The notes: a model not told the origin generated them from the sequence alone. Positions 4,879-31,135 are shown, numbered from the stretch's first letter. The stretch: DNA of 64,000 nt from Acidimicrobiia bacterium (GCA_024637275.1 JAGXFS010000140.1:11562-75561), one strand, 5' to 3'. Program-made: numbers and translations.

Positions 4879-5504
4879 TCTGAAATCTCCACGATGCGGG
4901 TCGTCGACCGGTTCGAAAGTGCCTGAGTAGTGAGAGATGCCGACGATGAGAAGTCCACCGTCGAGAAATCGCCAATCGCGGCTTGGGTAATACTTGATAC
5001 CCAAGCACCCCCGAGTGCGGACCACTCAGTTGAGTCGAGGGTTCTAAACCAGGTTGAAGCATCCGGATAGTCAAAGGCGGTACCGGTAAACGTCACCGAC
5101 CCGTAAGTTGGGGTTTCACCGGTGTCGTCTTCGGGAGGAGCGGCGCCGGCCGTCAACGTTCCGACCCAGGTCCGCGGAGGTAAAACCCTCCCGAGGTCGT
5201 TCAAGAATCGACCCCAGTCGACGTCCACCGCCAGAGATTCAGTGATCTGCGAAGAGCGGCTTTCATAAAGATCAAGCGCTGCCGCTGCGTCGGACAACGC
5301 CGCAATGTCATTCTCAAGACGGGCGTTCGCCGCGCGCTGATTGTCGACGTTGTCAACGGCAGCGGACAGAGCCTGCGTTCGGAGGAACCACAACCCACCA
5401 AGGGCCACGAGAAAAATCACGAACAAGAGAACCACAAACGCGGAGCCACGCCGCTGCCGGGCAGCCCGTGCTTGCTCGGGAGGCAGGAGATTAATCGGCC
5501 GCAC
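4875..5504 (-). CDS. pilN: Type IV pilus assembly protein PilN
   Basis: 209 aa with the PilN hallmark N-terminus MRPINLLPPEQ (INLLP motif), then a TM helix and coiled coil. Abuts the pilM stop. Confidence 0.65.
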   Translation of the reverse strand: MRPINLLPPEQARAARQRRGSAFVVLLFVIFLVALGGLWFLRTQALSAAVDNVDNQRAANARLENDIAALSDAAAALDLYESRSSQITESLAVDVDWGRFLNDLGRVLPPRTWVGTLTAGAAPPEDDTGETPTYGSVTFTGTAFDYPDASTWFRTLDSTEWSALGGAWVSSITQAAIGDFSTVDFSSSASLTTQALSNRSTTRIVEISE

Positions 5505-6578
5505 TTATGCTTCTCCCCATAGTGCCAGACCAACCGCCACCGGCAGAACCGGTTGGGTCTGGTTGAGTTCCTCTTCGGTTAAGCCAGTCTTGCCTACGGA
5601 TAGTCGGTCGGAATTCAGCAACGCTACCGGTTGGAGCTGCATGTTGAGCTGGACCCGCATGCGGTTGGCGAGGTGCGGGAGACGCGCTCCGTTGCCAGCG
5701 ATCATGATGGTGTCGATCCCCCCGTCTTCGGCCGACGAAAGATAGAAATCAAGCGAACTGCGCACCTCATCGACCAGTGCGTCAGCCTGGCGGGTCAATG
5801 CAGCCATCGCTACGGCATCCGGGTCATTGCCAGTCGGCATTCCTTCGATAGCCACACCCAGACGCCGCTTCAACTGCTCAGCTTGATCCTGATCAATACC
5901 CAGAGCGTCCGTGACGCTCTGGGTGAAGTCGTTGCCGCCGTTGGGCACAATGCGCAAGAATCGCAACGTGCCGCCTTTGATGACGAGCACCTGCGTCAAG
6001 CTCGCGCCGATATTGACAATCGCCTTCGGGTTGGGACTCAGGTCGATGTCCCCACCGGTGGCCGCCCGCACCAGCGCAAACGCCTGGAGGTCAATAGCCT
6101 TGGGCTTGATGCCGGCTCCACCCAAAATCCGCACCACATCCGAAGCCATCTCCTTCTGGGCGGCCACGACCATGATCGACATGCGGGCTTCGCCTTCTGG
6201 CGTTGAAAACTCCTCCAACGGAACGAAATCCAGGATGGCTTCGTCGATGGGAATGGGAATATATTCTTGCGCTTGGAAAGCCAGCGACTCCGCCAGTTCG
6301 CTCTCCTGCATATAGGGCACAGAGATCTGGCGGACGATCACACGTTGATTGGCAATCCCGACAATCACATTCTTCTTGGGGATCTTCGCCTCTTTGAACA
6401 GCCGGGTTAGGGCGTCCTGGAGCACGGTTTCGTCGACGATCTCGCCGTTCTGAATTGCTCCGGGCGGCAACGCGACTTCTGCGAACTTCTTGAGGACCGG
6501 CGGACCCTTTTTCGAGGTCTCAACAAGCGCAGCTCGTACGGCACTCGTTCCGATGTCCAGACCGACATTGGCGGTCAT
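5505..6578 (-). CDS. pilM: Type IV pilus assembly ATPase-like protein PilM (actin-like fold)
   Basis: Start set at the internal Met of MTANVGLDIGTSAVRAALVE, the PilM/FtsA-like phosphate-1 motif. It is preceded by AAGGAG on the minus strand. The track ORF runs to 6608. Confidence 0.8.
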   Translation of the reverse strand: MTANVGLDIGTSAVRAALVETSKKGPPVLKKFAEVALPPGAIQNGEIVDETVLQDALTRLFKEAKIPKKNVIVGIANQRVIVRQISVPYMQESELAESLAFQAQEYIPIPIDEAILDFVPLEEFSTPEGEARMSIMVVAAQKEMASDVVRILGGAGIKPKAIDLQAFALVRAATGGDIDLSPNPKAIVNIGASLTQVLVIKGGTLRFLRIVPNGGNDFTQSVTDALGIDQDQAEQLKRRLGVAIEGMPTGNDPDAVAMAALTRQADALVDEVRSSLDFYLSSAEDGGIDTIMIAGNGARLPHLANRMRVQLNMQLQPVALLNSDRLSVGKTGLTEEELNQTQPVLPVAVGLALWGEA

Positions 6579-6691
6579 TCTTACGCTCCTTGGCGGCCAG
6601 CACCGCAATCCCTTGCCCGTAGGCTACAACATCGTAATTACAAACGTGTTGTTTTGGAAGCGTAGCCGCGTGCGAGCGATCGTCGCAAGAA

Positions 6692-7489
6692 CTAGCCGAT
6701 GCCGAGATAAGCCCGGGCGATCTCATTGCCGAACGCAATCGCCAGCCAGGCACCAGCAACCATCGATGGGCCAAAAGGAATTGCGTCCTTGCGACTAACT
6801 CGCCTGGTGATAAGGAGAAGAATCGACACTCCCCCACCGATGAAGACCGCCCCGAACACCGCTACAACCAAAGCCGCCCAGGACACGTATCCAACGAACA
6901 TACCGAGGAAAAACGCCAGCTTCACATCACCCATCCCGAAGCCGGCCGGTACGAGCAAAGCCAGGATGAGAAAACCACCAAAATATGCGAGTGCGGTGAT
7001 CCAGGATCGACCGTAGGAACCAAGCCCACCTTCCGCAACTGCCCCCGCCCCGAGCAGCAGAGCACCAACTAGTGCTCCCGGGAACAGAATCCGGTTGGGG
7101 ATCCGTTTGGTGTCAAAATCGATGAGCGCCAAGGCCAACGTAACGGCGGCAAACCACAAATAGGCGACGACCGTCCAGTCCAGACCGACGACGAGGTAGA
7201 CGCCGTAAAACAGCGCTGCATTGGCCGCCTCTACGAGCGGGTACCGCGCCGAAATAGGAGTGCGACAGGAACGGCATTTCCCGCGCAAGAGAAGCCAAGA
7301 CAGGACCGGGAGGTTGTCATACGGCTTGATCTCCGTCCCACAGTTCGGGCAAGCCGACGGCGGGCTGACCACAGACAGACCTGCCGGGATTCGATAGACG
7401 ACCACGTTCAGAAAAGAACCAACGACGAGCCCAACCACGATGAACAGATACGGCGCGACTAGCTCAAGGTTGTCCAAATACAGATCCAT
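6692..7489 (-). CDS. pilD: Prepilin peptidase (A24 family, PilD)
   Basis: Zinc-binding Cys tetrad (CPNCGTEI...CRSCRTPI) followed by about 8 TM helices and the DxxxxxG region. Start placed at the internal MDLYLDN; the track ORF extends to 7636 in an unlikely N-terminal extension. Confidence 0.8.
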   Translation of the reverse strand: MDLYLDNLELVAPYLFIVVGLVVGSFLNVVVYRIPAGLSVVSPPSACPNCGTEIKPYDNLPVLSWLLLRGKCRSCRTPISARYPLVEAANAALFYGVYLVVGLDWTVVAYLWFAAVTLALALIDFDTKRIPNRILFPGALVGALLLGAGAVAEGGLGSYGRSWITALAYFGGFLILALLVPAGFGMGDVKLAFFLGMFVGYVSWAALVVAVFGAVFIGGGVSILLLITRRVSRKDAIPFGPSMVAGAWLAIAFGNEIARAYLGIG

Positions 7490-7539
7490 GTGTCCTACTC
7501 GATCGGTCGTGGAGCCTACCCCAAGACCGATCAGTTCAA

Positions 7540-8007
7540 CTACCAACCATTCTGGCAATCGGCGAGTAGGCCGAAGGTCATCGTGGCATCCTGGCCAAAG
7601 TAGGTGCCGGCCGCAGAACCAGATCCCTCGTCCCACAAACAGAACCAGGTACCCGAGTTGCTTTGCGCGACGAACATCACAGCCTGGTCGGCCAGTCCAT
7701 CGGCATTGGCGAGGATCACAAATCCCACCTCGTCCGGGGTCGGCGCCAGCCCGGCGACATACGCGATCCCGGCGTGCACGCGGTCGAGTTCCGGTACTCC
7801 GAAGTTGTAGTCGGCGTTGGTATCGGCATAAATCACCTTGGCCGCAGACAAAGAGTTGCGTAGATCGCTCTGCACAGCTCGGTCCTAGGCCCTGACTCTG
7901 GCTCCTAAGAACGTTGGTATCGCAATGGCAATGAGAATGGCAATAATGAGAACCACCACCATCAGCTCTACCAACGTGAAGCCTTCTTCGTCATGTTTCA
8001 GACGCAT
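7540..8007 (-). pseudogene. Type IVa major-pilin paralog interrupted by an in-frame amber codon at 7885..7887
   Basis: Reading the minus strand from the ATG at 8005..8007 (preceded by GAGGAG) gives MRLKHDEEGFTLVELMVVVLIIAILIAIAIPTFLGARVRA-TAG-DRAVQSDLRNSLSAAKVIYAD..., all in one frame. The intact paralog at 8205..8720 has Gln at the aligned position (GARERAQDRAAQSNLRN). Confidence 0.6.
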
Positions 8008-8019
8008 GAGCTCCTCGCT

Positions 8020-8050
8020 TTCAAATTGTTATATATAGAGAGTTGTATCG
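8020..8050 (-). promoter_or_regulatory. AT-rich putative promoter (-10-like TATATA) for the downstream pilin/pilD transcription unit
   Basis: The stretch ttgttatatatagagagttgtat is strongly AT-rich in an otherwise ~65% GC window. It lies about 20-40 nt upstream of the pilin RBS and start, just after the upstream terminator. Confidence 0.25.
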
Positions 8051-8105
8051 GCGCCAGACAGCTGATGCTGTAGCTCCAAGACGGAGTAGCGGACGCCGGG
8101 TCGAG

Positions 8106-8140
8106 AGAGTATTGGCACCAACTCCACAAAAAAGGGACCG
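8106..8140 (-). terminator. Rho-independent terminator following the intact pilin gene
   Basis: Perfect hairpin aaagggaccgcc-cgaa-ggcggtcccttt. On the minus strand it is followed by a T-run (TTTTTTGTGG). It sits 65 nt downstream of the pilin stop. Confidence 0.55.
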
Positions 8141-8204
8141 CCCGAAGGCGGTCCCTTTCGAATCCGAGCTACCTGACGAATCAGGCAGATCTCAGTTTGG
8201 TTTC

Positions 8205-8720
8205 TTACCAGTCAGTGGCGGCGCACTCGGCCCGGGTGAAGCTCAAGTCGACACCGGTCAGGTCCGACCCGTAGGTGGTACCCGAACCGTACGTCCCGTT
8301 CGTCAACACATCTGAGATACAGAAGCTCGTGCCCGAGGCCGAGTCCGTCGTGAAGGTGATGACCTGACGGTCAGCTGCCGCACTGTTGTTCTCGACAACG
8401 TAGCCAACTTCGTTGGCTCCGACGGTGATGGCTCCAGCAACGAAGGTCAAGCTGGGCTCGATAGCGTTCAGGAGAGCCGGCGTAACATCGGCGGCAGCAC
8501 CATTGGAGAAGTCTTCTTCGTCGGTGTAGTGCACCTTGGCCGAAGTCAACGCGTTGCGAAGGTTCGACTGGGCGGCACGGTCCTGAGCACGCTCACGAGC
8601 ACCGAGGAAGGTCGGGATGGCGATGGCGATAAGAATGGCAATAATCAAAACAACGACCATCAACTCGACGAGGGTGAAACCCTCTTCTTTGTTCAGGCGG
8701 TTACGCATCCATGAAATCAT
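8205..8720 (-). CDS. pilA: Type IVa major pilin (class III signal peptide)
   Basis: 171 aa. Leader MISWMRNRLNKEEG, then FTLVELMVVVLIIAILIAIAIP (cleavage after Gly, Glu at +5). Two Cys near the C-terminus (FCISD...AECAATDW), probably a disulfide-bonded loop. AAGGAG lies 7 nt upstream of the ATG. Confidence 0.8.
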   Translation of the reverse strand: MISWMRNRLNKEEGFTLVELMVVVLIIAILIAIAIPTFLGARERAQDRAAQSNLRNALTSAKVHYTDEEDFSNGAAADVTPALLNAIEPSLTFVAGAITVGANEVGYVVENNSAAADRQVITFTTDSASGTSFCISDVLTNGTYGSGTTYGSDLTGVDLSFTRAECAATDW

Positions 8721-8888
8721 TATGGGACTCCTTATAAGTGTTCAATGTTCCCTGCAGGCCGTCTTGACCTACGTAGGTGTTATCGACGCCCCGGCGCCGA
8801 GACTTAAGAACTAATCCACGATTCTTTAACGAGCCAGGGACCCGCAAAAAGCGAATCCCTGTCTCCGGAATTGGACCGGTTAGCTGGT

Positions 8889-10115
8889 TTACTGGACGAG
8901 GTTGACGATATTGAACATCGGCATATAGAGGGCGATCAACATGCCACCCACGGTCGCACCCAAAACGACGATAAGGAGCGGCTCGATGAGGCTGGTGAGG
9001 CCTTCGACCATCGCCTCGACCTCAGAATCGTAGAAGTCGCCAACCTTCTCGAGCATCGTGTCGAGGGCACCCGTTTCCTCCCCGACGGCGATCATCTGAA
9101 CGACCATCGGCGGAAACACCGGATGATCTCTTAGTGGGGCCGCAATCGACTCACCTTCAGCGACGGACGCCTTGACATCCTGGACGGCTCGAGCCACCAC
9201 GGCGTTGCCGGCGGTGTCAGACACAATATCCATCGCCTGGAGGATTGGCACCCCGGTCTTGGTTAGCGCTGCCAGCGTGTGCGAGAACCGAGCAATAGCC
9301 GTCTTATGAATCAGATTTCCGAAGATCGGCAGCTTCAACTTGATGGCGTCGAAGGTAGATCGTCCACCGTCGGTGGCGATCCACCTCTTGAACGACACCA
9401 GCGAACCAACCGACACAATGATCACGGCCCACCAGTAGGTGGTGACCAGCTTCGAGAGGAGCAACAAGAACTTGGTTGCACCGGGGAGCTCTCCCCCGAG
9501 GTCCGCGTATAGCGCCTCGAACATCGGTACCACGAAGATGATCATGGCCGCGACGATGAAGATAACCAGTCCGAACACCGCGATCGGATACATCATGGCC
9601 GACTTGATTTTGGACCGCAGGGCGACCTGTGCCTCGAGAGTATCGGCGAGCCGCAACAGCGTGTCGTCGAGCACACCACCCACCTCACCAGCCTTCACCA
9701 TGGCGGTGTACAGCTGGTTGAAGGCCTTCGGGTGTTGTTCCATGGCCGCTGAGAGGCTCGTACCACGTTCGACGTCAGCTTTGACCAGGTCGATGATGTC
9801 GGAGAGTGCCTTGTTCTCGGTCTGGTCCGAGAGGATACTGAGCGACCGTAGCAGCGACAGGCCCGCATTGATCATCGTGGCGAACTGCCGCGAGAAAATC
9901 GCCACGTCCTTGGCCTTCACGCGATCGGTGAGGCCCGGAATCTTGATCTCTTTCTTCAAACCAGAGTTCGCCGCGGCCGTCTCGGACAGACTGAGCGGGC
10001 TCAGGCCCTTGCCCCGCAACGCTGTCGCGGCAGCCGTCTGCGTGGAGGCTTCGATCGTGCCCTTCTTGACTTTGCCGTCCGAGTCTTTGGCCCGGTATTC
10101 AAATGTTGTAGCCAT
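8889..10115 (-). CDS. pilC: Type IV pilus platform protein PilC (GspF family)
   Basis: 408 aa with two GspF-type repeats and three TM segments. Lies between pilT and the pilin gene. Confidence 0.85.
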   Translation of the reverse strand: MATTFEYRAKDSDGKVKKGTIEASTQTAAATALRGKGLSPLSLSETAAANSGLKKEIKIPGLTDRVKAKDVAIFSRQFATMINAGLSLLRSLSILSDQTENKALSDIIDLVKADVERGTSLSAAMEQHPKAFNQLYTAMVKAGEVGGVLDDTLLRLADTLEAQVALRSKIKSAMMYPIAVFGLVIFIVAAMIIFVVPMFEALYADLGGELPGATKFLLLLSKLVTTYWWAVIIVSVGSLVSFKRWIATDGGRSTFDAIKLKLPIFGNLIHKTAIARFSHTLAALTKTGVPILQAMDIVSDTAGNAVVARAVQDVKASVAEGESIAAPLRDHPVFPPMVVQMIAVGEETGALDTMLEKVGDFYDSEVEAMVEGLTSLIEPLLIVVLGATVGGMLIALYMPMFNIVNLVQ

Positions 10116-10125
10116 GCTCTATCTC

Positions 10126-11694
10126 CTAAGCCACGCGACCGACAAGTCGCTGTAGATCTTCCAGGTCAGAGCACCGCTCCGCGGCGAGCTCGTAGGTAAT
10201 AATGTTTCGTCGCACCAGGTCCGCCAGGGACTGGTCCATGGTTTGCATGCCCCACTTTCCGCCGGCTTGCATGGCGGTGGCGATCTGGTGGTTCTTTCCT
10301 TCGCGAATCAGGTTTCTAACCGCAGGGGTTGCGACCATCACTTCGATGGCTGGAACCCGGCCACGGCCGTCACGGGTAGGCAACAGTTGCTGGGTTACGA
10401 CCGCTTGCAGCGTGGCTGCCAGCTGAACCCGGACCTGGCCCTGCTGGTGCGAAGGGAACACGTCGATCATACGATCGATCGTCTGGGGGGCGTCCTGGGT
10501 ATGAAGTGTGGCAAAAACCAGGTGGCCGGTTTCGGCTGCGGTCAGGGCGGTAGAGATGGTTTCCAGATCTCGCAGCTCACCTACCAGGATTACATCGGGG
10601 TCCTGGCGGAGGGCATGGCGCAGCGCCATGTTGAACCCCATGGTGTCTGCGCCGACCTCACGCTGGTTGACGATCGCCTTCTGATGGTGGTGTAGAAACT
10701 CGATGGGATCTTCAACGGTAAGAATGTGGCAGGCGCGTCGGCGGTTGATGAGGTCGACGATCGACGCCAGGGTGGTCGACTTACCGGAACCGGTAGGTCC
10801 CGTGACGAGGACGAGGCCACGCGCATATTCTGCGAACTCACCGACGACGGTCGGCACACCGAGTTCCTCAAGCGGCTTGATTACGTCCGGAATGGCGCGG
10901 AACACCGCCCCAACCGCGTCACGTTGAAAGAAAACGTTAAGACGGAAACGACCTTTGCCCGGCAACGGATGTGAGGCGTCGAGTTCTAGCGACTCTTCCA
11001 GCTTCTCACGCTGCTTCTCAGTCAGGATCGCATAGATCATGCGCCGGATGTCTGCCGGCATCATGATGCCAAAGTCCGTGAGTTGCCGAAGCTCGCCGTT
11101 GACGCGGATCTGAGGAGACGAGCCAGCGGTGATGTGGAGGTCAGATCCACCCTGGTCGACCAGGATCGTGAGCAACGTGTTGACATGAAGTGCCGGCTCG
11201 GCGACCTCGATGTCCGGCACGGCGCCGCCCATGCCGGGGACCCGGGTAACCGGGATTTCCTCCGGTCCATGCATGAACGAGATGGCCCGCTGGATGGCTT
11301 CCTTGGTAGCCAGAGCGAGGGTGATCTTCTTACCGGTGATCTGTTCGAGGCGCCGATGGCGTTCGGCGTCGAAGGGGTCAGCGACCGCAACCGTGAGGAC
11401 GTTATCCACCAATCGGACGGGAATCGCCAGGAGGGCGGCGGAGTCGTCGCCACTCAAGGCGGCGATTGCCTCTGGGTCGAAAAGCTGATCGTCGAGTTCG
11501 ACGTATTCCATCCCGACCCGGGCAGCAACGGTTTTGAGGAGGTCTTCTTCACGCACGAGGCCGTCATCGGTAAGGATCTTCGCCATCGGCGTACCGGTGG
11601 TTTGCTCTTTGGCCAACACTGTCTCAAGCACATCTTTTGAGAGAAGGTGCCGGTCAACGAGGAGCTCGCCAAGTTTTCGCGATGCTGAGTTCAT
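10126..11694 (-). CDS. pilT: Pilus retraction ATPase PilT with an N-terminal GspE-N/MshEN-like extension
   Basis: The C-terminal ~350 aa carry PilT hallmarks: SDLHITAGSSPQIRVNGEL, Walker A GPTGSGKST, the Asp-box, His-box ATLHTQD and the PilT-specific AVRNLIREGKNHQI. The first ~170 aa contain two repeats resembling the GspE N-terminal domain (KLGELLVDRHLLSKDVLETVLAKEQ and MAKILTDDGLVREEDLLKTVAARVGMEYVEL). Confidence 0.8.
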   Translation of the reverse strand: MNSASRKLGELLVDRHLLSKDVLETVLAKEQTTGTPMAKILTDDGLVREEDLLKTVAARVGMEYVELDDQLFDPEAIAALSGDDSAALLAIPVRLVDNVLTVAVADPFDAERHRRLEQITGKKITLALATKEAIQRAISFMHGPEEIPVTRVPGMGGAVPDIEVAEPALHVNTLLTILVDQGGSDLHITAGSSPQIRVNGELRQLTDFGIMMPADIRRMIYAILTEKQREKLEESLELDASHPLPGKGRFRLNVFFQRDAVGAVFRAIPDVIKPLEELGVPTVVGEFAEYARGLVLVTGPTGSGKSTTLASIVDLINRRRACHILTVEDPIEFLHHHQKAIVNQREVGADTMGFNMALRHALRQDPDVILVGELRDLETISTALTAAETGHLVFATLHTQDAPQTIDRMIDVFPSHQQGQVRVQLAATLQAVVTQQLLPTRDGRGRVPAIEVMVATPAVRNLIREGKNHQIATAMQAGGKWGMQTMDQSLADLVRRNIITYELAAERCSDLEDLQRLVGRVA

Positions 11695-11821
11695 GGCTTC
11701 TAGTTCCCCTTATCGATCACATTTTGTGGGTCAATGTATCTTCGGCAGGCCTCGCGGCCGACTTAATGGATAATCGAGGTGGCTTGGAACTTTGACCCGG
11801 CGGTGGTCCCGGCGGGACGCG

Positions 11822-13504
11822 CTACACAGTAACGCGGAGGATCTCTTCGATCGAGGTATCTCCGCGACGTGCCTTGATGAGGCCGTCCTGGCGGAGCGGA
11901 CGCATACCTTCCTGCACGGCTACCTTCTTGATGGAGTCCGTGGTCGCCTGGTCTACGGCCATCCGCTCGATCGTTTCTGAGACGAGCATGAGCTCATGCA
12001 ACGCGAGTCGCCCCCGGTACCCGGTGTCACCACACCGTGCGCAGCCGCCCGGCTTGAACAGTTCGGGAACTTCGTCCCCAAACTCGTCGAACTGCCAACC
12101 AACCCTGGCCAAGGCGTCCTTGGTCGGTTGATAGGGGGTCTTGCACTCCCCACACAACCGGCGGGCCAGGCGCTGCCCGAGGACGGAATCGACAGCTGAC
12201 CCGACGAGGAATGGTTCGACGCCCATCTCGATCAGGCGGCTGATGGCCGACGGAGCATCATTGGTATGCATCGTCGAGAGCACCAGGTGACCGGTAAGAG
12301 CAGACTCGATGGCGATCTCGCCGGTCTCCTGGTCCCGGATCTCACCAACGAGCATGATGTCGGGGTCCTGACGCAAGAACGAGCGCAACGCCGACGCGAA
12401 GGTCAGGCCGGCCTTCTTGTTCACCTGGACCTGATTGATTCCGTTGAGGCGGTACTCGACCGGATCCTCACAGGTCACGATGTTGACGTCGGGCTGATTC
12501 AGCACATTCAGCGTTGAATAGAGCGTTGTTGACTTACCGGAACCAGTCGGGCCACAGCACAGGATCGTTCCATACGCCTTGTTATATGAGGAAGCATATC
12601 GCTCGAGGGTGTCTGGCTCGAAACCAAGTTGTTCCAGTTCGAGGGTGGCCGTTGAATTGTCGAGAATACGCATGACGATCTTCTCGCCGTAGATGGTGGG
12701 AAGGGATGAAACGCGCAAGTCGATCGTTTTCGTTCCTCCCACTCGCAGGCTGATACGACCGTCTTGGGGTCGACGTCGTTCCGCAATGTCCATGTCGGCC
12801 ATGATCTTCAAACGACTGACCACGGCGTTACTGACCGATCGCGGGGTCCGCATAATCTCGTGCAACACACCGTCCACCCGGAACCGCACCCGCAGGTCCT
12901 TGTCCGTTGGCTCGATGTGGATGTCAGACGCCCGCTCTGCCGCAGCCTTAGCGATAAGCATGTTGACCAATTTGACGATGGGAGCTTCTTCGGTGGACGC
13001 TTCGACCGCATTGAGGTCTTGCGTTTCCATCTCGTCTTCGCCAAAGCCGGCGAAGTCGGTGACCGAGTCGTCGAGGCCGGCATTGTTTGCAATGGCGTTT
13101 TCAACGTCGCTTCGTGTTGCAACCTTGGCGATGACGTCGCGACCCGAGATCGCCCGAATGTCATCGATCGCCAGCACATTGGCGGGGTCAGACAGCGCTA
13201 CGACGAGCTTATCGTCTTCAAAACCGATCGGGATAGCCGCATACCGGCGAGCGAGGGCATCGGGAATAAGCGCCGTAGCGGCGGGATCGATGGTGATTTC
13301 CTTGAGGTCGACGAACTCAACGCCGATCGCCTTCGCCAACGTGCGAACCAGGTCACGCTCGGAGACAATCTTCTCCTCGACCAGCACCCGCCCAAGCGGA
13401 CGGCCAGTCTCGGCCGCCATGGCCAGACCTTTCTCAAGGAGTTCCTGAGTTAGCAGCCCCTCCTCAAGGAGGAGGCTGGCGAGGTGTCCGCTATCACGAG
13501 TCAT
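11822..13504 (-). CDS. pilB: Type IV pilus assembly (extension) ATPase PilB, GspE family
   Basis: 560 aa. GspE-N domain at the N-terminus (LASLLLEEGLLTQELLEKGL...), Walker A GPTGSGKSTT, and the tetracysteine zinc motif (CGECK...CARCGDTGYRGR) typical of PilB/GspE. Confidence 0.85.
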   Translation of the reverse strand: MTRDSGHLASLLLEEGLLTQELLEKGLAMAAETGRPLGRVLVEEKIVSERDLVRTLAKAIGVEFVDLKEITIDPAATALIPDALARRYAAIPIGFEDDKLVVALSDPANVLAIDDIRAISGRDVIAKVATRSDVENAIANNAGLDDSVTDFAGFGEDEMETQDLNAVEASTEEAPIVKLVNMLIAKAAAERASDIHIEPTDKDLRVRFRVDGVLHEIMRTPRSVSNAVVSRLKIMADMDIAERRRPQDGRISLRVGGTKTIDLRVSSLPTIYGEKIVMRILDNSTATLELEQLGFEPDTLERYASSYNKAYGTILCCGPTGSGKSTTLYSTLNVLNQPDVNIVTCEDPVEYRLNGINQVQVNKKAGLTFASALRSFLRQDPDIMLVGEIRDQETGEIAIESALTGHLVLSTMHTNDAPSAISRLIEMGVEPFLVGSAVDSVLGQRLARRLCGECKTPYQPTKDALARVGWQFDEFGDEVPELFKPGGCARCGDTGYRGRLALHELMLVSETIERMAVDQATTDSIKKVAVQEGMRPLRQDGLIKARRGDTSIEEILRVTV

Positions 13505-13510
13505 GATGCC

Positions 13511-14545
13511 TTAGTGGGAGTCCTGAGTTTCGCCGAGTTCGCGAGCTAATGCGCTCAACCCGCCCCGGCGGCGGCTCAGATTGGCGGCCCGCTCACTGAG
13601 CGTGCCTTCGAGATCGTCTGTGGCATCGTAGTCGGAGGTGACAATCTCAACGGAGTCGTCGTCGCTCCCCGCCTCTCCGATAACTCCCGAGAGAACGGAC
13701 TGGAGCAGATCGTCGTCGTTGACGTCGTCACCATCGTTGGATGGGGCGTTGTCATCTTCGTAGACGAGGTCGGTTCGATTCATTGAGAACGTCCCTGACC
13801 CGCCCGAAGACGCCGACAATCCGAGATCGTCATCGCTATAGGTCGGGGCAGCCTCGAAACGTTCTTCGGTCACGGAAACAAGTTCCTGCCGGACCAGATT
13901 GGCCATCGCCTTGGCGACGACGAACTCTGACGTGCCGGTACGATGAGCTACTTCGGCGATTGTGCCGTGCCCACCCAACGCGGCCAGAAGCTTCCATGTT
14001 TCGATCTTGAGGGTCACATCACTGGCACCCTCTGGCAAGGTCTGCGCCATACGCAACCCGAACTTCGTTCCGGGGATGACCTCTTCAATATCAGCCCACT
14101 GCTCGGCCCGATGATCGGCGTCGGCAAGACAAATCTCGATGTCGACTACCTCTCCTGAGTCATAGCGCGGCGACACTTCATCGCCGAAGTCGAACGTACC
14201 CCGGCCAGGTCGGCCCAGGCGAAAAAGCACCTCGGTGCCCTGTTCGGCAAGGAAGTCGCGCAAGTCGGCGTGGGTGTGGCCTTCGATAAGCACCTCCGCC
14301 ACCGTCTGCTCGCGACGCTCAACCCGCATCCAGCCGTCCGTGTCCACGAATCCGGCATTGAGTAGATCGGTGCGCAGGTCTTCATCGCGTCGAGTGGTCG
14401 CATACGCGAGTTTCCCGCTCGATAAATAGATCTTTCCCTCAAGTCCACCGGCTTCAACGCGCAAACAGCCGGATTTCTGTGAGCGTGCCAGCATACGCAG
14501 CACCTCACTGAGAGGAATCGATTCGAGGCGTCCCGTCAGCGCCAT
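13511..14545 (-). CDS. DUF4388 (PATAN-like) domain protein with a long acidic low-complexity C-terminal tail
   Basis: The N-terminus GRLESIPLSEVLRMLARSQKSGCLRVEAGGLEGKIYLSSGKLAYA matches the DUF4388 signature (LxDxLQxL...KTGxL...GxIyfxxG). The C-terminal third is D/E/S-rich. The stop lies only 6 nt from the pilB start. Confidence 0.6.
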   Translation of the reverse strand: MALTGRLESIPLSEVLRMLARSQKSGCLRVEAGGLEGKIYLSSGKLAYATTRRDEDLRTDLLNAGFVDTDGWMRVERREQTVAEVLIEGHTHADLRDFLAEQGTEVLFRLGRPGRGTFDFGDEVSPRYDSGEVVDIEICLADADHRAEQWADIEEVIPGTKFGLRMAQTLPEGASDVTLKIETWKLLAALGGHGTIAEVAHRTGTSEFVVAKAMANLVRQELVSVTEERFEAAPTYSDDDLGLSASSGGSGTFSMNRTDLVYEDDNAPSNDGDDVNDDDLLQSVLSGVIGEAGSDDDSVEIVTSDYDATDDLEGTLSERAANLSRRRGGLSALARELGETQDSH

Positions 14546-22671: not shown

Positions 22672-23876
22672 GTGGCGATCTCCTCGCGTGCAATAGTTTC
22701 TTGTGAGCCGTCGTCTAGTCGTTTGACGACTACCTGGCCCGTTTCCCATTCGTCGCCGACCACCACTACCGCCCGAGCCCCCCGCCGATCCGCCGCTTTG
22801 AACTGAGCCTTCAGCGACCGTTGATCAGGCAGGTTATCGGACCTGATGCCCGAGCTTCGCAGCTCACCCAGCATAAGCAACGCCTCGGCCCGCCGGGTGT
22901 CCGTGTTTGCGACGAACACGTCGATCGCCGGCAGCTCTGGGTCCGGAACCGATAAGACGATTCGATCGATACCAAGGGCCAGACCGACCCCCGGGACCGG
23001 TGGACCACCAAGCACTTCCGCCAGACCGTCGTAGCGGCCACCACCGCCTAAGGCGGTTTGGGCCGAGTCGAGGGCCGAACCGACGTACTCAAAGGCAGTC
23101 CGCGTGTAGTAATCGAGGCCACGCACCAGCCGCGGGTCAAGGAGGTACCGAACTCCGTCCGCAACCAGCCGTTCCTGAACCGACGCGAAATGTGCCTGAC
23201 AGGCGTCGCATAGTGAATCCACCGGCGACGGTGCCTCGGCGACAACGTCAGCGCAGATTTTGCAGTCCAACACTCGCATCGGGTTGAGGTCGAGGGTTTG
23301 CTGGGAATCCGCACAAAGAAGTGACCGCCGATCTTCGAGCCACGAACGAAGTATCTCGACGTAGGCTGGGCGGCATGCGGCATCGCCGAGTGAGTTCAGG
23401 CGCACGGTCACGTCAGGCACCCCCGCCGATGTGAGATAGCGGTACCCGAGTTCGATGACTTCGGCATCTGCGTCAGGCTCTGGTGACCCGAGATACTCAA
23501 GGCCAACCTGATAAAACTGCCTCCGCCGGCCGGCCTGGGGCCGCTCGTAGCGAAACATGGGGCCGGAGTAGGAAACCTTCATAACCCCTTGTGCACCAGC
23601 TTGGAGGAACGCCCGAACGACGCCTGCGGTACCTTCAGGGCGGAGGGTCAGCGACCGCCCTCCCTTGTCGTCGAAGGTGTACATCTGCTTTTGGACCACC
23701 TCAGATGACTCACCTACCCCTCTGCTGAACACCTCAGTCATCTCAAAGATCGGCACCATGATGAGGTCATAGCCGTAGACCTCCGCCATCTGCTCCCAGG
23801 CGTTGAGCAGCCGCCGCCAAACGCGCGAAGCGGGCGGAAGGATATCGTCGGTGCCCTTGGGGGCGCGCAAACTCAT
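22653..23876 (-). CDS. hisS: Histidine--tRNA ligase
   Basis: 407 aa (MSLRAPKGTDDILPP...RPEGTAGVVRAF), with HisRS motifs 1 and 2 and a C-terminal anticodon-binding domain. Confidence 0.9.
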   Translation of the reverse strand: MSLRAPKGTDDILPPASRVWRRLLNAWEQMAEVYGYDLIMVPIFEMTEVFSRGVGESSEVVQKQMYTFDDKGGRSLTLRPEGTAGVVRAFLQAGAQGVMKVSYSGPMFRYERPQAGRRRQFYQVGLEYLGSPEPDADAEVIELGYRYLTSAGVPDVTVRLNSLGDAACRPAYVEILRSWLEDRRSLLCADSQQTLDLNPMRVLDCKICADVVAEAPSPVDSLCDACQAHFASVQERLVADGVRYLLDPRLVRGLDYYTRTAFEYVGSALDSAQTALGGGGRYDGLAEVLGGPPVPGVGLALGIDRIVLSVPDPELPAIDVFVANTDTRRAEALLMLGELRSSGIRSDNLPDQRSLKAQFKAADRRGARAVVVVGDEWETGQVVVKRLDDGSQETIAREEIATWLKSH

Positions 23877-24520
23877 GGTGTCAGTCCTTGCAAAAACGGG
23901 TTGGTACGACGTTCACGCCCAACGGTAGTAGCCGGCCCGTGACCGGGAAAAACAATTACTTCATCATCGAGCGTCAGCACTTTCTTCGCCATGCTGTCCA
24001 TTAGCTGTTGGTAGCTGCCCCCGGGGAGGTCTGTCCTACCGATCGACCCGGCGAACAACTGATCACCAGAGAAGAGGACACCCTCCTCGGCGACCCGGAA
24101 ACAGACGTGACCAGGCGTATGGCCGGGCGTGTGGACTACGTCAAAGTCAATATCGGCGAGCCGAACCCGCTGCCCATCGGCCAGCGGCTCGAACTCCGGC
24201 ACGTGAATGGGGTCGGCGAGCCTGATACCCATCAGAGCTTCGACCTGTTGAGTCGGATTTAGGCTCAGGTAGTCGTCGTCGGGGTGCACGTACGCTTTGA
24301 TCCCGTACCTATTGACCACCTGCCCGGCCGCTCCACCGTGGTCCACGTGTCCATGGGTGACAAGCAGCGCCACGGGGGAGACTTCGAGGGCAGCGACGAG
24401 GGCGACGATCGCGTCGATATCGGGTGGTGCGTCGATGATGACCCCCGGTCCTCCCGTTTCCCGGGCAACCACATATGTGTTGGTCTGCGCAACCCATAAC
24501 GAGCGAGATTCAATAAGCAA
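23873..24520 (-). CDS. MBL-fold metallo-hydrolase (glyoxalase II-like), TTG start
   Basis: 215 aa with THGHVDHGG and later HTPGH and PGHG motifs. Co-linear with the conserved actinobacterial MBL gene downstream of hisS. An MLI N-terminus with a TTG start is supported by resemblance to the mycobacterial orthologue. Confidence 0.75.
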   Translation of the reverse strand: MLIESRSLWVAQTNTYVVARETGGPGVIIDAPPDIDAIVALVAALEVSPVALLVTHGHVDHGGAAGQVVNRYGIKAYVHPDDDYLSLNPTQQVEALMGIRLADPIHVPEFEPLADGQRVRLADIDFDVVHTPGHTPGHVCFRVAEEGVLFSGDQLFAGSIGRTDLPGGSYQQLMDSMAKKVLTLDDEVIVFPGHGPATTVGRERRTNPFLQGLTP

Positions 24521-24578
24521 AGAAGCGACCTTCTATCTTGGAAGGTCGCTTCTTGCTAGATCAACTTCGAAGTTGATC
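24517..24578 (-). terminator. Tandem hairpins downstream of the prepilin module. The first overlaps the MBL gene SD and start.
   Basis: Hairpin 1 (about 24517-24556) is gcaaagaagcgaccttc-tatcttg-gaaggtcgcttcttgc, a 16-17 bp stem. Hairpin 2 (24559-24578) is the perfect 9-bp palindrome gatcaacttcgaagttgatc. A T-rich stretch follows on the minus strand (TTGCTTATTG). Confidence 0.45.
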
Positions 24579-24619
24579 AATGCGGCCTCCGCGTGAAGGC
24601 CAGCAGGTTAGTAGTGAGA

Positions 24620-26122
24620 TTATGGCGTGCAGTAGGCCGTGACTGGCTCCGAGTTCGGAGATACATCCCGCCAGTCGCCTGGCTCAGGAATGAACGAGTC
24701 AGCGAGTGCCGGGTCAAACGTGAATCCCTGGATAACCCCTTCAGTCGGAGGACGGAAGTGGATTTCCAGGCGGTTACCCGTCTGGTCCTTGTAGCCATAC
24801 ATGGCACCGTAGATCACCGACTGGTTGGTTGACGTCACGATGCCGCTTGAGAAGACCAGGTGGTGCACCTCGCCGGGCACCGACTGGAAGTTCTGGCCAA
24901 GCGTCAATGTTCCGGTAGCTTTTTTCATGACGATGATTACGGAGGCCGGTTCGCCCGAGGGAGTCGAGCCCTTCTTCGGTGTGCCTCGAATCTCAAACGA
25001 GCCATCAACGATCAGAACGAAGTTGTCCGTGAAGGTGTTCTGATGGAAGTTGACGACACTTCCGTCCCCCGCCGCGACCACATGGACACCTTTGAGGTTA
25101 TTGCCGTTGGCCGCCACATAAGCACGGAAGTCCGCCAGGTTGGCATAGTAAGTGATCGTATAGCCCACGTAGTCACCTGCGTTGAAAGTGAAGACCGGGA
25201 GCGACACGTCTGGCACCGGCTGCATGTCATTGGCGTTCGGGATCAAAGTGGCGCCACCAATGTTCGATCCAGCCTTGAGAGCTAGGTCAGCAATCTTGAC
25301 TTCGCCACCGAGCACCGTCGCTTTCTTGAAGTATGAGTTCAGATAGGACGAGATGGTGCCGTCGGACCGGATTTGCACAGTCGACCCATATTGGGTTGAC
25401 GCAGACAGATCGTTGACACGACCTTGCACGTTGACATCCGATTGAACGAACACGTTCGAACCGCTGTCGATAGTCAGGTCACCGTATACCGTCATGGTGC
25501 CCTCGCCGCGATAGGGGTCATCGTTCTTGAAGATACTGGTTTGAGCCGAAATCGTGACGTCTTCACCCGAGTAGGCGTCACCGTAGATCGTCTTGAAGTT
25601 CGCTCCGACGATTCCACCCTTGGCTGCAAAGAGCGCATTGGTGAAGCCACCAAGAGGCACCAATTCGACGTCAAGCAACACCTTCTTGGCGACTCCCTTC
25701 GACGAGGTGCGGCTTGGTGCCCACCCCCACGACTCGAGGTGGTACTTAAGGTTATCGACCTTGGTGACTGCCACCCAATATTCGCCCTGACCCTCCACGA
25801 CGCCTTCGGCAACCGTCTCCAGGGTCTGCACGTCGCAGATCCCACCGGCCAGGATCCCCGAGGAGGCAAACCCGACGCTCTGCGCGTCCGTGCGCCAGCT
25901 GTCGACGTCGTAGGTGAGCAAAGCCATCGCTTCTTTCGCTCCTGCCTCGGCGACGTTTAACGCCTGAGTACGGTTACGGTCGAACGAGACCTCATCCAGT
26001 TCGTGAACCGCCAACGAATACCATGTGGCACCGAGCGCAAACACGATGAACGACACCGACAGAGCGGTGATAATACCGATGCCATCCTCGTCAGATCTCA
26101 GTTGTTCGATGAATTTGCGCAT
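24620..26122 (-). CDS. PilX/TadG-like pilus-associated protein (N-terminal PilX_N-like TM segment, large beta-rich extracellular region)
   Basis: 500 aa. N-terminus DEDGIGIITALSVSFIVFALGATWYSLAV resembles the PilX N-terminal domain. The remainder is rich in G/S/T/N/D/V repeats, suggesting a beta-helix-like fold. Last gene of a three-gene prepilin operon. Confidence 0.5.
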   Translation of the reverse strand: MRKFIEQLRSDEDGIGIITALSVSFIVFALGATWYSLAVHELDEVSFDRNRTQALNVAEAGAKEAMALLTYDVDSWRTDAQSVGFASSGILAGGICDVQTLETVAEGVVEGQGEYWVAVTKVDNLKYHLESWGWAPSRTSSKGVAKKVLLDVELVPLGGFTNALFAAKGGIVGANFKTIYGDAYSGEDVTISAQTSIFKNDDPYRGEGTMTVYGDLTIDSGSNVFVQSDVNVQGRVNDLSASTQYGSTVQIRSDGTISSYLNSYFKKATVLGGEVKIADLALKAGSNIGGATLIPNANDMQPVPDVSLPVFTFNAGDYVGYTITYYANLADFRAYVAANGNNLKGVHVVAAGDGSVVNFHQNTFTDNFVLIVDGSFEIRGTPKKGSTPSGEPASVIIVMKKATGTLTLGQNFQSVPGEVHHLVFSSGIVTSTNQSVIYGAMYGYKDQTGNRLEIHFRPPTEGVIQGFTFDPALADSFIPEPGDWRDVSPNSEPVTAYCTP

Positions 26123-26140
26123 GTTGGTTTTTTTCGCTTT

Positions 26141-26776
26141 CTAACAGTTGGCTGCGTTGGGGGTCCAAATATTGCGACCTGCTACTTCGGTTGATTCCAG
26201 GCGAGGGCTGATCCGGTCCAACGGACTCCGATCGATCCACACTGAGATCCGGACAACTTTGCCGTAGCTCGGCGAGGCCGACGGAAGGCCAGTGTTGTTG
26301 ATCTCGTTTCTGCCCTGGTTTTCAAACAGGAACTGGGGCGTGCCCAGGTCGACCGCAACAATCTCGTTGACGACGGTTTCGTTGACGGTTATAAACGTCA
26401 GGCCGCCATCACCGGATCGCTGCAGGTCCGTGTTGGCCCCGTCACCATCGACGTCAACCAACCGATAGATGATATGACGGGTGTCAGCCGGCGGGATCGG
26501 ATTGGAACGAGTAATGAACGACAGCGTGTTGGAAGCATCGCCAGGTGCGGGGATGCAAATCGTCTCGGCGCCGCGGAGCTCTCTATCCACCCTCTCCAAA
26601 ATCAAACGAATATCGTCGTTGGTCCTCGCCGAGTTTTCAATATCACGGGTAGCTCGCAACGAGGACGACAGCACGTTCGAGAACACGATGCTCACGATGG
26701 TCAACAGGAAGATGGCAACCATCAGTTCCGTGAGGGTGAGACCCCGTTCGTCGGTCTTGAGGCGGTCGAAGATCAT
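26141..26776 (-). CDS. Minor pilin / pseudopilin with a prepilin-type N-terminal cleavage-methylation domain
   Basis: Start at the internal MIFDRLKTDERG, then LTLTELMVAIFLLTIVSIVF (class III signal peptide, Glu at +5). The track ORF extends to 26809. The start overlaps the stop of the upstream giant pilin. Confidence 0.65.
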   Translation of the reverse strand: MIFDRLKTDERGLTLTELMVAIFLLTIVSIVFSNVLSSSLRATRDIENSARTNDDIRLILERVDRELRGAETICIPAPGDASNTLSFITRSNPIPPADTRHIIYRLVDVDGDGANTDLQRSGDGGLTFITVNETVVNEIVAVDLGTPQFLFENQGRNEINNTGLPSASPSYGKVVRISVWIDRSPLDRISPRLESTEVAGRNIWTPNAANC

Positions 26777-26777
26777 G

Positions 26778-28832
26778 TCAGTCCGCCGATGGGTCAATGT
26801 AGACAGCATTTACGTTGAGCTTCTCAGATTCGTAATGAAGGCCGAGGTCGTAGAGAACGATCCGCCCCCCATCCTGTGCGTAAACGAGGCGCGGTGGGGT
26901 GAGGCTGCCAAATCCTCCCGCTTCCAGTCCGTACTCCACGACCTTGTAGTCGAGGTCGACCGTGACCATCGGCAGCTTCGTCTCAAACCAGGTGCGCGAG
27001 CGTGCGGCCAGGCCGTCCACCGTGGACCCGGTACACCAGCCATTGACCGTCACCGAACCCGACACGGTGTACTCAAGGCGCGGTCGCCCTGGAGAAGAGA
27101 TCGTACTCGTGATCGGAACACCGCCCCAGAGTTGGACCGTGTTGGCAATGTTGGTACCGCTGCCGCAATTGGAGCCGTAGTTGGCACGGTAGTCAACAGC
27201 AGACGCAGTCCCGTTCGGATTCACGACCACATACCTACGAAGGGCGGGATCCCATTGTTTGATGATCATGGTGGTCATGATCGGGTTCGGGTTGGCGATG
27301 ACGCCCTGTCCGGCAAGCACGTTGACCTGCACGTCGGGCATGGTGACAACCACCCAACCGTGAAAGTCGCCGGTTCCGCCGTTATCCGGATACGCCGTAT
27401 CGTCAAAGAAGTGAAGGTTTCCGCCGTCGTAGTTGTCGAGTGACGCAGCGATCTGCTGATACCCGTCGATTGGGGTGTCATCACGATCGACGGTCCCGCC
27501 GAAGACGATGGCCGAGGTTGGGAAGCTGGGGTTCTCCCGCCGGAACATATCGAACTTGTAGGAAGCGGCGTCAAGCGCAGAGACCCAGTTGCTATACATC
27601 ACACGTAATGACGATGGCGTGGTCTCGGTGTATTCGGTGAACCCAACGGCCATCTTGGCGGGGAACTTTGTCGTCGTCGCCAACTGAGCGAAGGGAAACT
27701 TGTCGTCGGGTGGTGGCGCGGCCGGAACCGGGTCGACCTCAGTAAACAGGTAGCCATTGATCGCGTAGTCCGAAGTTTCCGTGATCTGGAGATCCTGATC
27801 AGCCGGTCCGGCGTAGTTGAGTCTCGCCAACGGTTGATTGAAAAGGACGCCGTTCGCCCCGAACTGCAGTGGCGGAATGGTGCTGGCGTCGTCGTCGCTA
27901 AGAAACTCCGTCTTCGCCGCGGGCAGTGTGAGGACCGGGTCGTCGAGCGTACCGTATAAGCCATCGGGACCTTCCCACTGGAGGCGCGACGAGTCGGTAC
28001 CAGAAACCCGAATTGATGACCCGGACACGAAGTCCGATGTAGCGCTCACCGTGGCGATTGGGAAGTTCACCGATGCATCAAACTGCTGGCGTTCATTTAT
28101 GGTCGACCAGAAGATCTCTGGAAGACCACCCGGTTGCGTCCAGGTCTCAACGTCGGTTCCGTGCGCATACGCACCGGCATAGACCCCGGACTTCGACGGC
28201 CCAATCCGCAGGGCGCCACCAGCCATATTCACCGTACCTGAAACGAACGGCTGGGACGGTTCCTGATACTCGGACACAATCGTCTCAAGCCGTACTTCTT
28301 TGCGGAAACCACCCGGCGGGACCCATTGCACGATCGCTGTTAGCCGGCGAGCAATCTCGTCGCCGGTCACCGGGTTTTCGATCGACGTCACGAACAGATA
28401 TCTGTCGTACACGGAGGTGTCGCGCTGCACCGATTCGTAGAAGTTCAAGAATGGGCGGAACGTGTCGGCATTCGAGAACACGACTGTCTCGCCGCCGAAG
28501 ATGTACTCATCCGCGACACCGTCGTAGATGAGATCACCGGCAGTGAACGGACTCCCGATGTAGCACCCGACTTGCTCGGTGGCGCAGCTATTACCACGAG
28601 TTGAAGTGGCAAGACCCATGTGTTCCCACTCCAACGCCTGGCCTCGTTCGATTAGCTCGGAGGCGAACGCCGAGGCAACCGCCTGCTTGCGGGTTTCCAC
28701 GATGACCCTGGTACCGGAGTCGAAGGTACGCAACAGCACAACCATGAGACCAAAGATGATCACAAGCGAGACCATGGCTTCGACAAGGGTGAAGCCCCTG
28801 TCATCATTCGGAACGCGGTGCAGTAAACGCAT
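26778..28832 (-). CDS. Giant (~685 aa) prepilin-type protein: a minor pilin with a large C-terminal module
   Basis: Leader MRLLHRVPNDDRG, then FTLVEAMVSLVIIFGLMVVLL (class III signal peptide, Glu +5). It is followed by more than 600 aa of soluble, G/T/S/N/Y-rich sequence. The track ORF begins at a TTG at 28841 and the ATG at 28832 is preferred. Confidence 0.65.
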   Translation of the reverse strand: MRLLHRVPNDDRGFTLVEAMVSLVIIFGLMVVLLRTFDSGTRVIVETRKQAVASAFASELIERGQALEWEHMGLATSTRGNSCATEQVGCYIGSPFTAGDLIYDGVADEYIFGGETVVFSNADTFRPFLNFYESVQRDTSVYDRYLFVTSIENPVTGDEIARRLTAIVQWVPPGGFRKEVRLETIVSEYQEPSQPFVSGTVNMAGGALRIGPSKSGVYAGAYAHGTDVETWTQPGGLPEIFWSTINERQQFDASVNFPIATVSATSDFVSGSSIRVSGTDSSRLQWEGPDGLYGTLDDPVLTLPAAKTEFLSDDDASTIPPLQFGANGVLFNQPLARLNYAGPADQDLQITETSDYAINGYLFTEVDPVPAAPPPDDKFPFAQLATTTKFPAKMAVGFTEYTETTPSSLRVMYSNWVSALDAASYKFDMFRRENPSFPTSAIVFGGTVDRDDTPIDGYQQIAASLDNYDGGNLHFFDDTAYPDNGGTGDFHGWVVVTMPDVQVNVLAGQGVIANPNPIMTTMIIKQWDPALRRYVVVNPNGTASAVDYRANYGSNCGSGTNIANTVQLWGGVPITSTISSPGRPRLEYTVSGSVTVNGWCTGSTVDGLAARSRTWFETKLPMVTVDLDYKVVEYGLEAGGFGSLTPPRLVYAQDGGRIVLYDLGLHYESEKLNVNAVYIDPSAD

Positions 28833-28948
28833 ACCTACCAAGTATCGGTCAGACTGCCCGTCAACCTTGACCTTTTTCGGGCCTGGCGGCCGGTCTAACC
28901 CCGCCTGCCACGATGAGACTAGTTACCCAGGGGTTCTCGCCTGCCTGG

Positions 28949-31135
28949 TTACTCGGTTCCGTCACCCTTCGGCACGATCCGGAATGCGTCATATACCCCA
29001 TCAACCGACCGAAGCATGTTCTGGATGCGGGCGACGTGGCCCGGATCAGACAACTCGACCTCATACCGGAGAACGGCCACCCGATCACGCCCGGTAGCCG
29101 ACGATGACGCAACAATATTCCCACCGACGTCAGTGAATACCCCGGTCACATCTCGAAGCAAGCCGGCCCGGTCGAACGCCTCCACCTGGATCCAGACGGC
29201 GAACCGCCCGACCCGGTCAGGTGACCAGGAGACATCGATCATTCGATCCCGCTGATCGGTCAGAACCGCCAGGTTCGTGCAATCGGATCGATGTACTGAG
29301 ACTCCTCTGCCAACGGTTACGAACCCGACAATCTCGTCACCGGGAACCGGCGCACAACATTGAGCAACCCGAACCAGGACATCGTCCAAACCTTCGACGA
29401 TGATGCCAGGACCGGTCGAACGCACGGTTCGTTGACGAGGCGGAGAAATGAGATCGTCTGACTCCGCGTCAATCTCGGGACGCACTTCGCGCGTTATCCG
29501 ATGAGCAACGTTGGTGGCGCTCGCCCCGCCCTCACCAACTGCCACAAAAAGCGACTCTGTGGAGGCGTGGCCAAGTTCCTGGGCGACAGTTTCGAGAAGC
29601 TGGTCTCGACGACTGGCATTGAGTCCCAGTCCTTCCTTCCGAAGCGCTTCGAAGACGGCTTCCTTGCCGTCGGTGATCGCGGCCTCCCGACGCTCCTTCG
29701 AGAACCATTGGCGGATCTTTGCTTTGGCTCGCGAGCTGCGGACGAACTTCAGCCAATCCCGGCTCGGTCCCGCGTCTGGCGCCTTGGACGTCAGGATTTC
29801 GACGAGATCGCCCGAGTTCAACTGCGTGTCTAGCGCGACAAGCCGACCGTTCACTTTGGCGCCAGTGCACCGGTGACCGACCTCCGTGTGCACGACATAG
29901 GCAAAATCAACCGGGGTGGCTCCGCGAGGCAACGAGTAGACACGCCCACGGGGCGAAAGCACAAAGACCTCGTCCTGGTACAGATCGAGCTTGAGATGGG
30001 TCAGGAACTCCTCGGGTTCGGCGTATTCGTCCTGGAGTCGCCGGATGTCAGCCATCCACGGCAGCGAATCAGAATCAACCCGCTCCTTGTATCGCCAGTG
30101 CGCCGCTATGCCGAACTCGGCGCGCTCATGCATTTCGTGGGTGCGGATCTGCACCTCGAGTGGCTTACGGTCGGGTCCAATAACCGTCGTATGAATCGAT
30201 TGATAGAGGTTGAATTTTGGCATGGCGATGTAATCCTTGAACCGGCCCTGGACCGGTGGCCACAAGGTGTGGATCAGCCCAAGCGCGCCGTAACAAGCTT
30301 GCACGTCGGCGACGATGATTCGGATGCCGATCAGATCGTGAATATCTTCGAATTGCTGGCCTGACTCCACCATCTTCTTATAGATCGAATAGTGATGTTT
30401 GGGTCGCCCCGAAACGAGCGCCGGTATGCCCGCTTCACCCAGAACCCCGTCGACCTCGCCGATGGCCTTGTCGATAATCGCCTCCCGTTGCGGAGATCGA
30501 TAGGCGATCAGCTCCGAGATCTCCTCGTACCGTTTGGGATAGAGCACGGCGAAACAACGGTTTTCCATCTCATGTTTGATCTCCTGGACACCAAGTCGGT
30601 GGGCCAGCGGCGCGTAGATTTCGAGGGTCTCAACGACGACTCGCTGCTGCTGTTCGGGAGACAGAAAGTCGATAGTTCGGATGTTGTGCAGTCGATCGGC
30701 AAGTTTGATGAGCAACACTCGCACGTCCTGAGCCATTGCCACGACCATTTTGCGGATCGTGGCCGCCTGGGCTTCTTCGCGACTATCAAAATGGACTCGA
30801 TCGAGCTTGGTCACTCCGTCGATAAGGGCAGCCACCGTTGATCCAAACTGAGCGGTGATGTCCTCAATGGTCGTGCTCGTGTCCTCGACCGTGTCATGCA
30901 AAAGCGCCGCCACGAGTGTGTCACGATCCATCCCGTATCCAGCCAGGATCTCCGTCACCGCGACCGGATGGGTGATGTACGGCAGGCCGGACTTGCGCAC
31001 CTGTCCGGCGTGCTGACGATCGGCAAGCTCATAAGCCTCCACCAGGAGCTCCAGATCATGGGGTTCCCAGTGGCGATCACCAACTACGTGATCGAGCGCT
31101 GCGGGCACGGCACCCGGTCCGCTAGGCATAAACAA
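28949..31135 (-). CDS. relA: Bifunctional (p)ppGpp synthetase/hydrolase Rel
   Basis: 728 aa with the HD hydrolase domain (HD motif in YITHPVAV), the RelA/SpoT synthetase domain, and TGS and ACT domains. Conserved apt-relA arrangement. Confidence 0.9.
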   Translation of the reverse strand: MFMPSGPGAVPAALDHVVGDRHWEPHDLELLVEAYELADRQHAGQVRKSGLPYITHPVAVTEILAGYGMDRDTLVAALLHDTVEDTSTTIEDITAQFGSTVAALIDGVTKLDRVHFDSREEAQAATIRKMVVAMAQDVRVLLIKLADRLHNIRTIDFLSPEQQQRVVVETLEIYAPLAHRLGVQEIKHEMENRCFAVLYPKRYEEISELIAYRSPQREAIIDKAIGEVDGVLGEAGIPALVSGRPKHHYSIYKKMVESGQQFEDIHDLIGIRIIVADVQACYGALGLIHTLWPPVQGRFKDYIAMPKFNLYQSIHTTVIGPDRKPLEVQIRTHEMHERAEFGIAAHWRYKERVDSDSLPWMADIRRLQDEYAEPEEFLTHLKLDLYQDEVFVLSPRGRVYSLPRGATPVDFAYVVHTEVGHRCTGAKVNGRLVALDTQLNSGDLVEILTSKAPDAGPSRDWLKFVRSSRAKAKIRQWFSKERREAAITDGKEAVFEALRKEGLGLNASRRDQLLETVAQELGHASTESLFVAVGEGGASATNVAHRITREVRPEIDAESDDLISPPRQRTVRSTGPGIIVEGLDDVLVRVAQCCAPVPGDEIVGFVTVGRGVSVHRSDCTNLAVLTDQRDRMIDVSWSPDRVGRFAVWIQVEAFDRAGLLRDVTGVFTDVGGNIVASSSATGRDRVAVLRYEVELSDPGHVARIQNMLRSVDGVYDAFRIVPKGDGTE

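Follow-up and report, generated by a model that had tools for sequence, protein, structure and literature searches.

A three-gene module of predicted minor pilins behind relA: a candidate tip complex for a type IVa pilus in an Acidimicrobiia bacterium

The window studied here, a stretch of 64,000 nt from an Acidimicrobiia bacterium, contains three tightly packed genes on the minus strand (named A, B and C here), with relA on one side and an MBL-hydrolase gene on the other (Table 1). The locus raises the question of whether these genes encode pilins and, if so, which pilus they serve and where in it they act. The ORF calls agree with the three-gene set given in the original prediction, and the 18-nt gap between B and C is as claimed. 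The ATGA overlap described for A and B is absent; the A stop codon (26780-26778) and the B ATG (26776) are separated by a 1-nt spacer (TGAcATG). The module ends in a strong hairpin structure, as predicted, made of three hairpins and not two: it folds at -50.5 kcal/mol (z = -6.9), none of 200 shuffles folded equally well, and a U-rich tail follows the last hairpin, whose long stem has 14 pairs by the consensus scan and 17 by the fold. In the spacer between relA and A, we could find no terminator, no significant structure (z -0.33) and no Rfam match. The 684-aa form of A uses the same start as its orthologues, and database protein P0001 is likewise 684 aa long; the 211-aa form of B is identical to database protein P0101, and a 222-aa form of B from 26809 is probably too long.

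Table 1. Positions of the module, its flanking genes and the pilus machinery in the 64,000-nt window (a slash marks the predicted cleavage site)
Feature	Position	Strand	Description
relA	28949..31135		upstream of module
relA-A spacer	28842..28948	-	about 107 nt
Gene A	26778..28841	-	ORF; 687 aa from TTG, 684 aa from ATG at 28832
A leader peptide	28794..28832	-	MRLLHRVPNDDRG; predicted PilD cleavage after Gly16 (687-aa numbering)
A pilin module	28257..28793	-	residues 17-195
A C-terminal module	26781..28247	-	residues 199-687; predicted all-beta, acidic
Gene B	26141..26776	-	ORF; 211 aa
B leader			MIFDRLKTDERG/LTLTELM; 211-aa prepilin
Gene C	24620..26122	-	ORF; 500 aa
C leader			MRKFIEQLRSDEDG/IGIITAL; no Glu at +5
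Triple hairpin	24516..24605	-	predicted intrinsic terminator, after C
MBL-hydrolase gene	23873..24520		downstream of module
hisS			downstream of module
T4aP machinery locus	3689..14545	-	from Pfam matches; presumed to serve the module
pilD	6692-7636		A24_N_bact and Peptidase_A24

The N-termini of A and B had been described as class III signal peptides, and both scores and conservation bear this out. The Pfam N_methyl model (class III signal peptide; IPR012902) has a gathering cut-off of 21.2 bits, which was exceeded by A (22.2 bits) and B (24.3 bits), and it matched 30 of the 37 members of the A family and 36 of the 37 of the B family. In the alignment of 37 A orthologues, E21 (+5) is invariant and G16 and F17 nearly so, and in that of B, G12 (-1) and E17 (+5) are nearly invariant; the Gly at -1 and Glu at +5, proposed earlier as a check on orthologues, are thus kept in both families. 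A leader of the type [DE][DE]xG is common to A, B, C and the PilA of this window. When the 64 kb was scanned in six frames for the pilin motif, with an interrupted pilA copy left out because of the stop codon inside it, matches came only from PilA, A and B, together with one cytoplasmic-looking false match; no pilin of the H type (GspH/FimU) was found within the 64 kb. Each of A, B and C has conserved cysteine pairs, which in these sequences would fit exported proteins.

The mature A protein (about 72.7 kDa, pI 4.4) had been predicted to be a pilin stalk with a large module grafted onto its C terminus, and the AF2 model (pLDDT 81.6, pTM 0.69) agrees. The pilin module consists of a 50-residue alpha1 helix, a loop with the conserved pair C86/C93 and a beta-sheet head, and is closed by a conserved EPSQP linker; in the model, helix 19-68 and strands 104-189 form the lollipop fold of pilins. 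Among pilins, this fold was structurally matched by I-type pseudopilins only (GspI, XcpV and EpsI), so that the pilin module may be regarded as GspI/PilV-like. The I-type NCBIfam models all scored A under their cut-offs (ComGE 22 against 49, XpsI 15.6 against 150 and PilV 13.6 against 52.2 bits). The C-terminal module (about 490 aa and 52 kDa) had no match in PDB, Pfam or repeat searches. Out of 5.8 billion proteins, about 51 clusters belong to the A family, with lengths of 620-766 aa throughout, and a Pfam domain was recognized in none of them. The pilin module is conserved (53-68%) whereas the C-terminal module diverges (29%) or is replaced in distant relatives, which is the pattern that would be expected for a carrier with an exposed effector. 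Modular pilins of such size had been called rare. In sequence databases modular pilins are common, more than 1,200 proteins with 264 architectures and up to 860 aa having been catalogued (PMC8179133); only their experimental study is rare.

The label ComZ-like had been attached to the giant pilin A, and proves to belong to C, the product of the third gene. The AF2 model of C combines a helix at the N terminus with a pilin sheet and a large beta-solenoid, in agreement with the predicted N-terminal helix and beta-helix-like extracellular region. Its best structural match was ComZ (6qvi), at an identity of 13%, and GspK and XcpX were also matched. This is a pilin fold with a bulky extra domain, as expected of a K-type capping pilin. 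Across the C family (42 sequences), G14 (-1) is invariant and position +5 is T, S, L or A and never Glu; a missing Glu5 characterises the capping K subunit (PMC9934059). C shares the leader type and has the invariant Gly but not the Glu, which makes a third pilin of the kind seen in GspK and PilX probable. With C itself prepilin-like, the module would encode three pilins: in order, one apparently of the I type, B, and one of the K type. Of the earlier description of C as PilX_N-like, the prepilin-like character (GspK/PilX, with Gly at -1 and without Glu at +5) stands, and the Pfam PilX_N match does not: C matched no Pfam or NCBIfam model (T2SSK and PilX_N included), a profile search of the PDB gave 0 matches, and one C homologue matched DUF7305.

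These observations bear on whether A, B and C are pilins at all or ordinary membrane-anchored or Sec-exported surface proteins, the N-termini of which merely resemble prepilin leaders. The want of a Pfam pilin signature in C and of pilus-related homology in the C-terminal module of A would agree with such proteins. However, Gly at -1 and Glu at +5 are kept over deep divergence, N_methyl matches most members of the A and B families, and the AF2 models, with a long alpha1 helix and a beta-sheet, match GspI, GspK and ComZ, so that we regard this explanation as highly improbable.

The type of B is less distinct. C74 and C211 are invariant in the B alignment. The NCBIfam matches of B were weak and all under the cut-offs (GspJ 15.4 against 295, PpdB 15.8 against 120 and ComGF 14.9 against 80 bits), no GspJ-family Pfam model matched members of the B alignment at E <= 1, and hhalign comparison with E. 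coli GspH, GspI and GspJ aligned the N-terminal helix only (for GspJ, leader and helix). Two B homologues are named PulJ/GspJ in database sources. Only gene order, these source annotations and the weak matches point towards a J-type pilin.

A machine that could assemble such pilins is encoded in the same window. It had been predicted that the module lies about 10 kb from a pil locus and has PilD, PilB and PilT nearby; about 11.1 kb separate the start of pilB (13504) from the end of C, and all three are present, together with PilC and PilMNO, on the strand of the module. The gene order is DUF4388, pilB, pilT, pilC, pilA, the interrupted pilA copy, pilD, pilM, pilN, pilO and a gene for a protein of 180 aa that matches no family. 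In NCBIfam, PilB scored 652 bits, just under the curated cut-off of 675.65, and PilT 478 bits against a cut-off of 319. PilB, PilT, a single PilC, PilMNO and a PilA of 171 aa make this locus T4a-type. The same features argue against Tad/Flp (T4c) pilins, which are marked by Flp pilins of very small size, a pair of platform paralogues and TadZ or TadG. The C-terminal beta-propeller (IPR008707) of the tip adhesin PilY1/PilC, a non-pilin protein, was not found here.

The module adjoins machinery genes in no locus examined. Related loci thereby support the predicted stand-alone, operon-like unit, and we connect the module with the local machine by inference only. This separation, and the presence of GspI and GspK of the T2SS among the closest structural families, would also suit a different type IV filament (for example, a short secretion or wall-crossing pseudopilus) with machinery outside the window and unrelated to pilMNO/pilBTC. 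That seems very unlikely, as the leaders of all three proteins follow the [DE][DE]xG pattern seen in the local PilA, the strand of the module also encodes, 11 kb away, a complete machine that includes PilD, and no second machine was seen within the 64 kb; moreover, the T2SS is a diderm system.

Computation shows that the pilin signatures are present and conserved, gives folds for A and C, establishes the order and synteny of the genes and places the machinery in the window. On these grounds A, B and C are likely to be three minor pilins which together make up the priming complex at the tip of the T4aP encoded about 11 kb away. Pilins of the I, J and K types are encoded in this order in gspI-J-K, pilV-W-X and Thermus pilA2-pilA3-comZ, and the matching order of A-B-C (I-type, B, K-type) argues by analogy for such a complex. 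A role at the tip, as adhesin or as DNA receptor, is the best-supported reading by sequence, models and analogy, as the original prediction had proposed. [quoted passage not shown] A, B and C would enter the membrane through their hydrophobic alpha1N helices, and PilD would cut each after the conserved Gly. C, of the K type, without Glu5 and with its bulky beta-solenoid, would enter first and cap the fibre, and the I-type pilin module of A, together with B, would join it through the helices to give a staggered trimer, onto which PilB and PilC would polymerise the major pilin PilA. The trimer would then stay at the tip of the pilus, where the C solenoid and A's 52-kDa beta module would be exposed as ligand-binding effectors, in adhesion or possibly in DNA capture, and PilT would retract the fibre. 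In a monoderm actinobacterium without a secretin, the size of the modules would not be limited by a secretin channel.

The best reading by analogy is that A-B-C resembles the complexes GspI-J-K, PilA2-PilA3-ComZ and PilABC of Streptococcus sanguinis. The core minor pilins of the T2SS (GspI-GspJ-GspK) and T4aP (PilV-PilW-PilX; 3ci0, 5vtm, 5bw0) are similar in having three adjacent genes with the K-type last, an I-type pilin that the pilin module of A matches in structure (GspI, XcpV, EpsI) and a GspK/XcpX-like subunit without Glu5. However, none of their sequence models was matched above cut-off, an H subunit and PilY1 are lacking here, A is some six times as large as GspI, and the inserted domain of C is a beta-solenoid whereas the extra domain of GspK is alpha. 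The PilA2-PilA3-ComZ set of Thermus thermophilus (6qvi; PMC6561018) differs in that identity is only 13% and there is no relationship at sequence level, the host here is monoderm and without a PilQ secretin, the I-type partner carries the additional 52-kDa module, and the A and C proteins are acidic. In S. sanguinis, which has a monoderm T4aP, exactly three minor pilins are likewise encoded in one operon; PilA-PilB-PilC form a tip complex essential for piliation and include two modular pilins of about 50 kDa (PMC9934059, PMC8179133). Both systems have one subunit without Glu5 and two large modular pilins of about 50 kDa or more, and share a proposed role in tip formation, filament initiation and adhesion. 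PilABC has no sequence homology to A-B-C, its subunit without Glu5 is the small, I-like PilA, whereas here it is the large, K-like C, and its modules are recognizable as vWA and lectin, whereas that on A has no recognizable fold. Beta-solenoids also occur in cyanobacterial PilX homologues (bioRxiv 10.64898/2026.02.12.705559), the sets of which hold four core minor pilins, and in the cellulose-adhesive tapirins of Caldicellulosiruptor (4wa0, 6n2b); both belong to other phyla, and neither has a partner like A.

According to a 2019 review (PMC6916266), the actinobacterial T4P studied by experiment were all Tad-type, and no study of actinobacterial T4aP minor pilins was found in the literature searched. 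The module provides a concrete candidate tip complex for actinobacterial T4aP. Together with S. sanguinis PilABC and Thermus ComZ-PilA2, it would bring the independent monoderm or deep-branching examples to three, in support of the view that a pilus can be primed and capped by just three pilins of which one lacks Glu5. It also fits the idea that effector domains have been grafted onto different subunits in different lineages. Most likely, this is a tip-complex system of a known kind in which the 52-kDa domain of A matches no solved structure, and this domain is accordingly a candidate new adhesive domain. The importance is moderate, as current models are left standing.

Wherever a related locus is long enough to show it, A, B and C lie side by side in this order (34 species representatives, all of which are MAGs, and 13 metagenome loci). 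It had been asked whether the module always lies behind relA in relatives; relA is followed by it in 25 of the 34 species representatives, with identity of A down to 28%. In one subclade, and likewise in a distant Actinomycetota MAG, the three genes have moved together and no longer adjoin relA. In other actinobacteria, to judge by the gene order of M. tuberculosis, the site between relA and the MBL-hydrolase gene would be that of ppiB. The predicted insertion into a conserved backbone stands in this form: judged from these sequences it is ancient, and not recent.

The neighbourhood of relA also bears on whether the same tip complex serves a competence pilus as a specialised extracellular DNA receptor, like ComZ-PilA2, and may be co-expressed with relA under starvation. 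ComZ, which C resembles best in structure, is a DNA-binding protein with a GspI-like pilin as its partner (PMC6561018), and the frequent position behind relA, with a spacer lacking a terminator, would permit such co-expression. However, that match has an identity of only 13%, the solenoid fold is also found in cellulose-binding tapirins and in ice-binding proteins, the cyanobacterial PilX solenoid occurs in competence and motility pilin sets alike (bioRxiv 10.64898/2026.02.12.705559), neither comEA nor comEC was found among those genes of the window that were compared with family libraries, and relA adjacency has been lost in the relatives mentioned. A and C are both acidic (pI 4.4-4.7), so non-specific DNA binding gains no support. 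We consider this specialisation possible but unlikely. A more far-reaching and rather doubtful reading is that the 52-kDa module of A is a new fold acting as a T4aP tip effector (adhesin, plug or mechanosensor), a pilin-fused functional replacement of PilY1 paired with a ComZ-like cap, and that the position behind relA reflects stringent-response co-expression, for example for starvation-induced adhesion or DNA scavenging.

The names of the Acidimicrobiia MAGs with the module suggest soil, sand-filter and wastewater sources.

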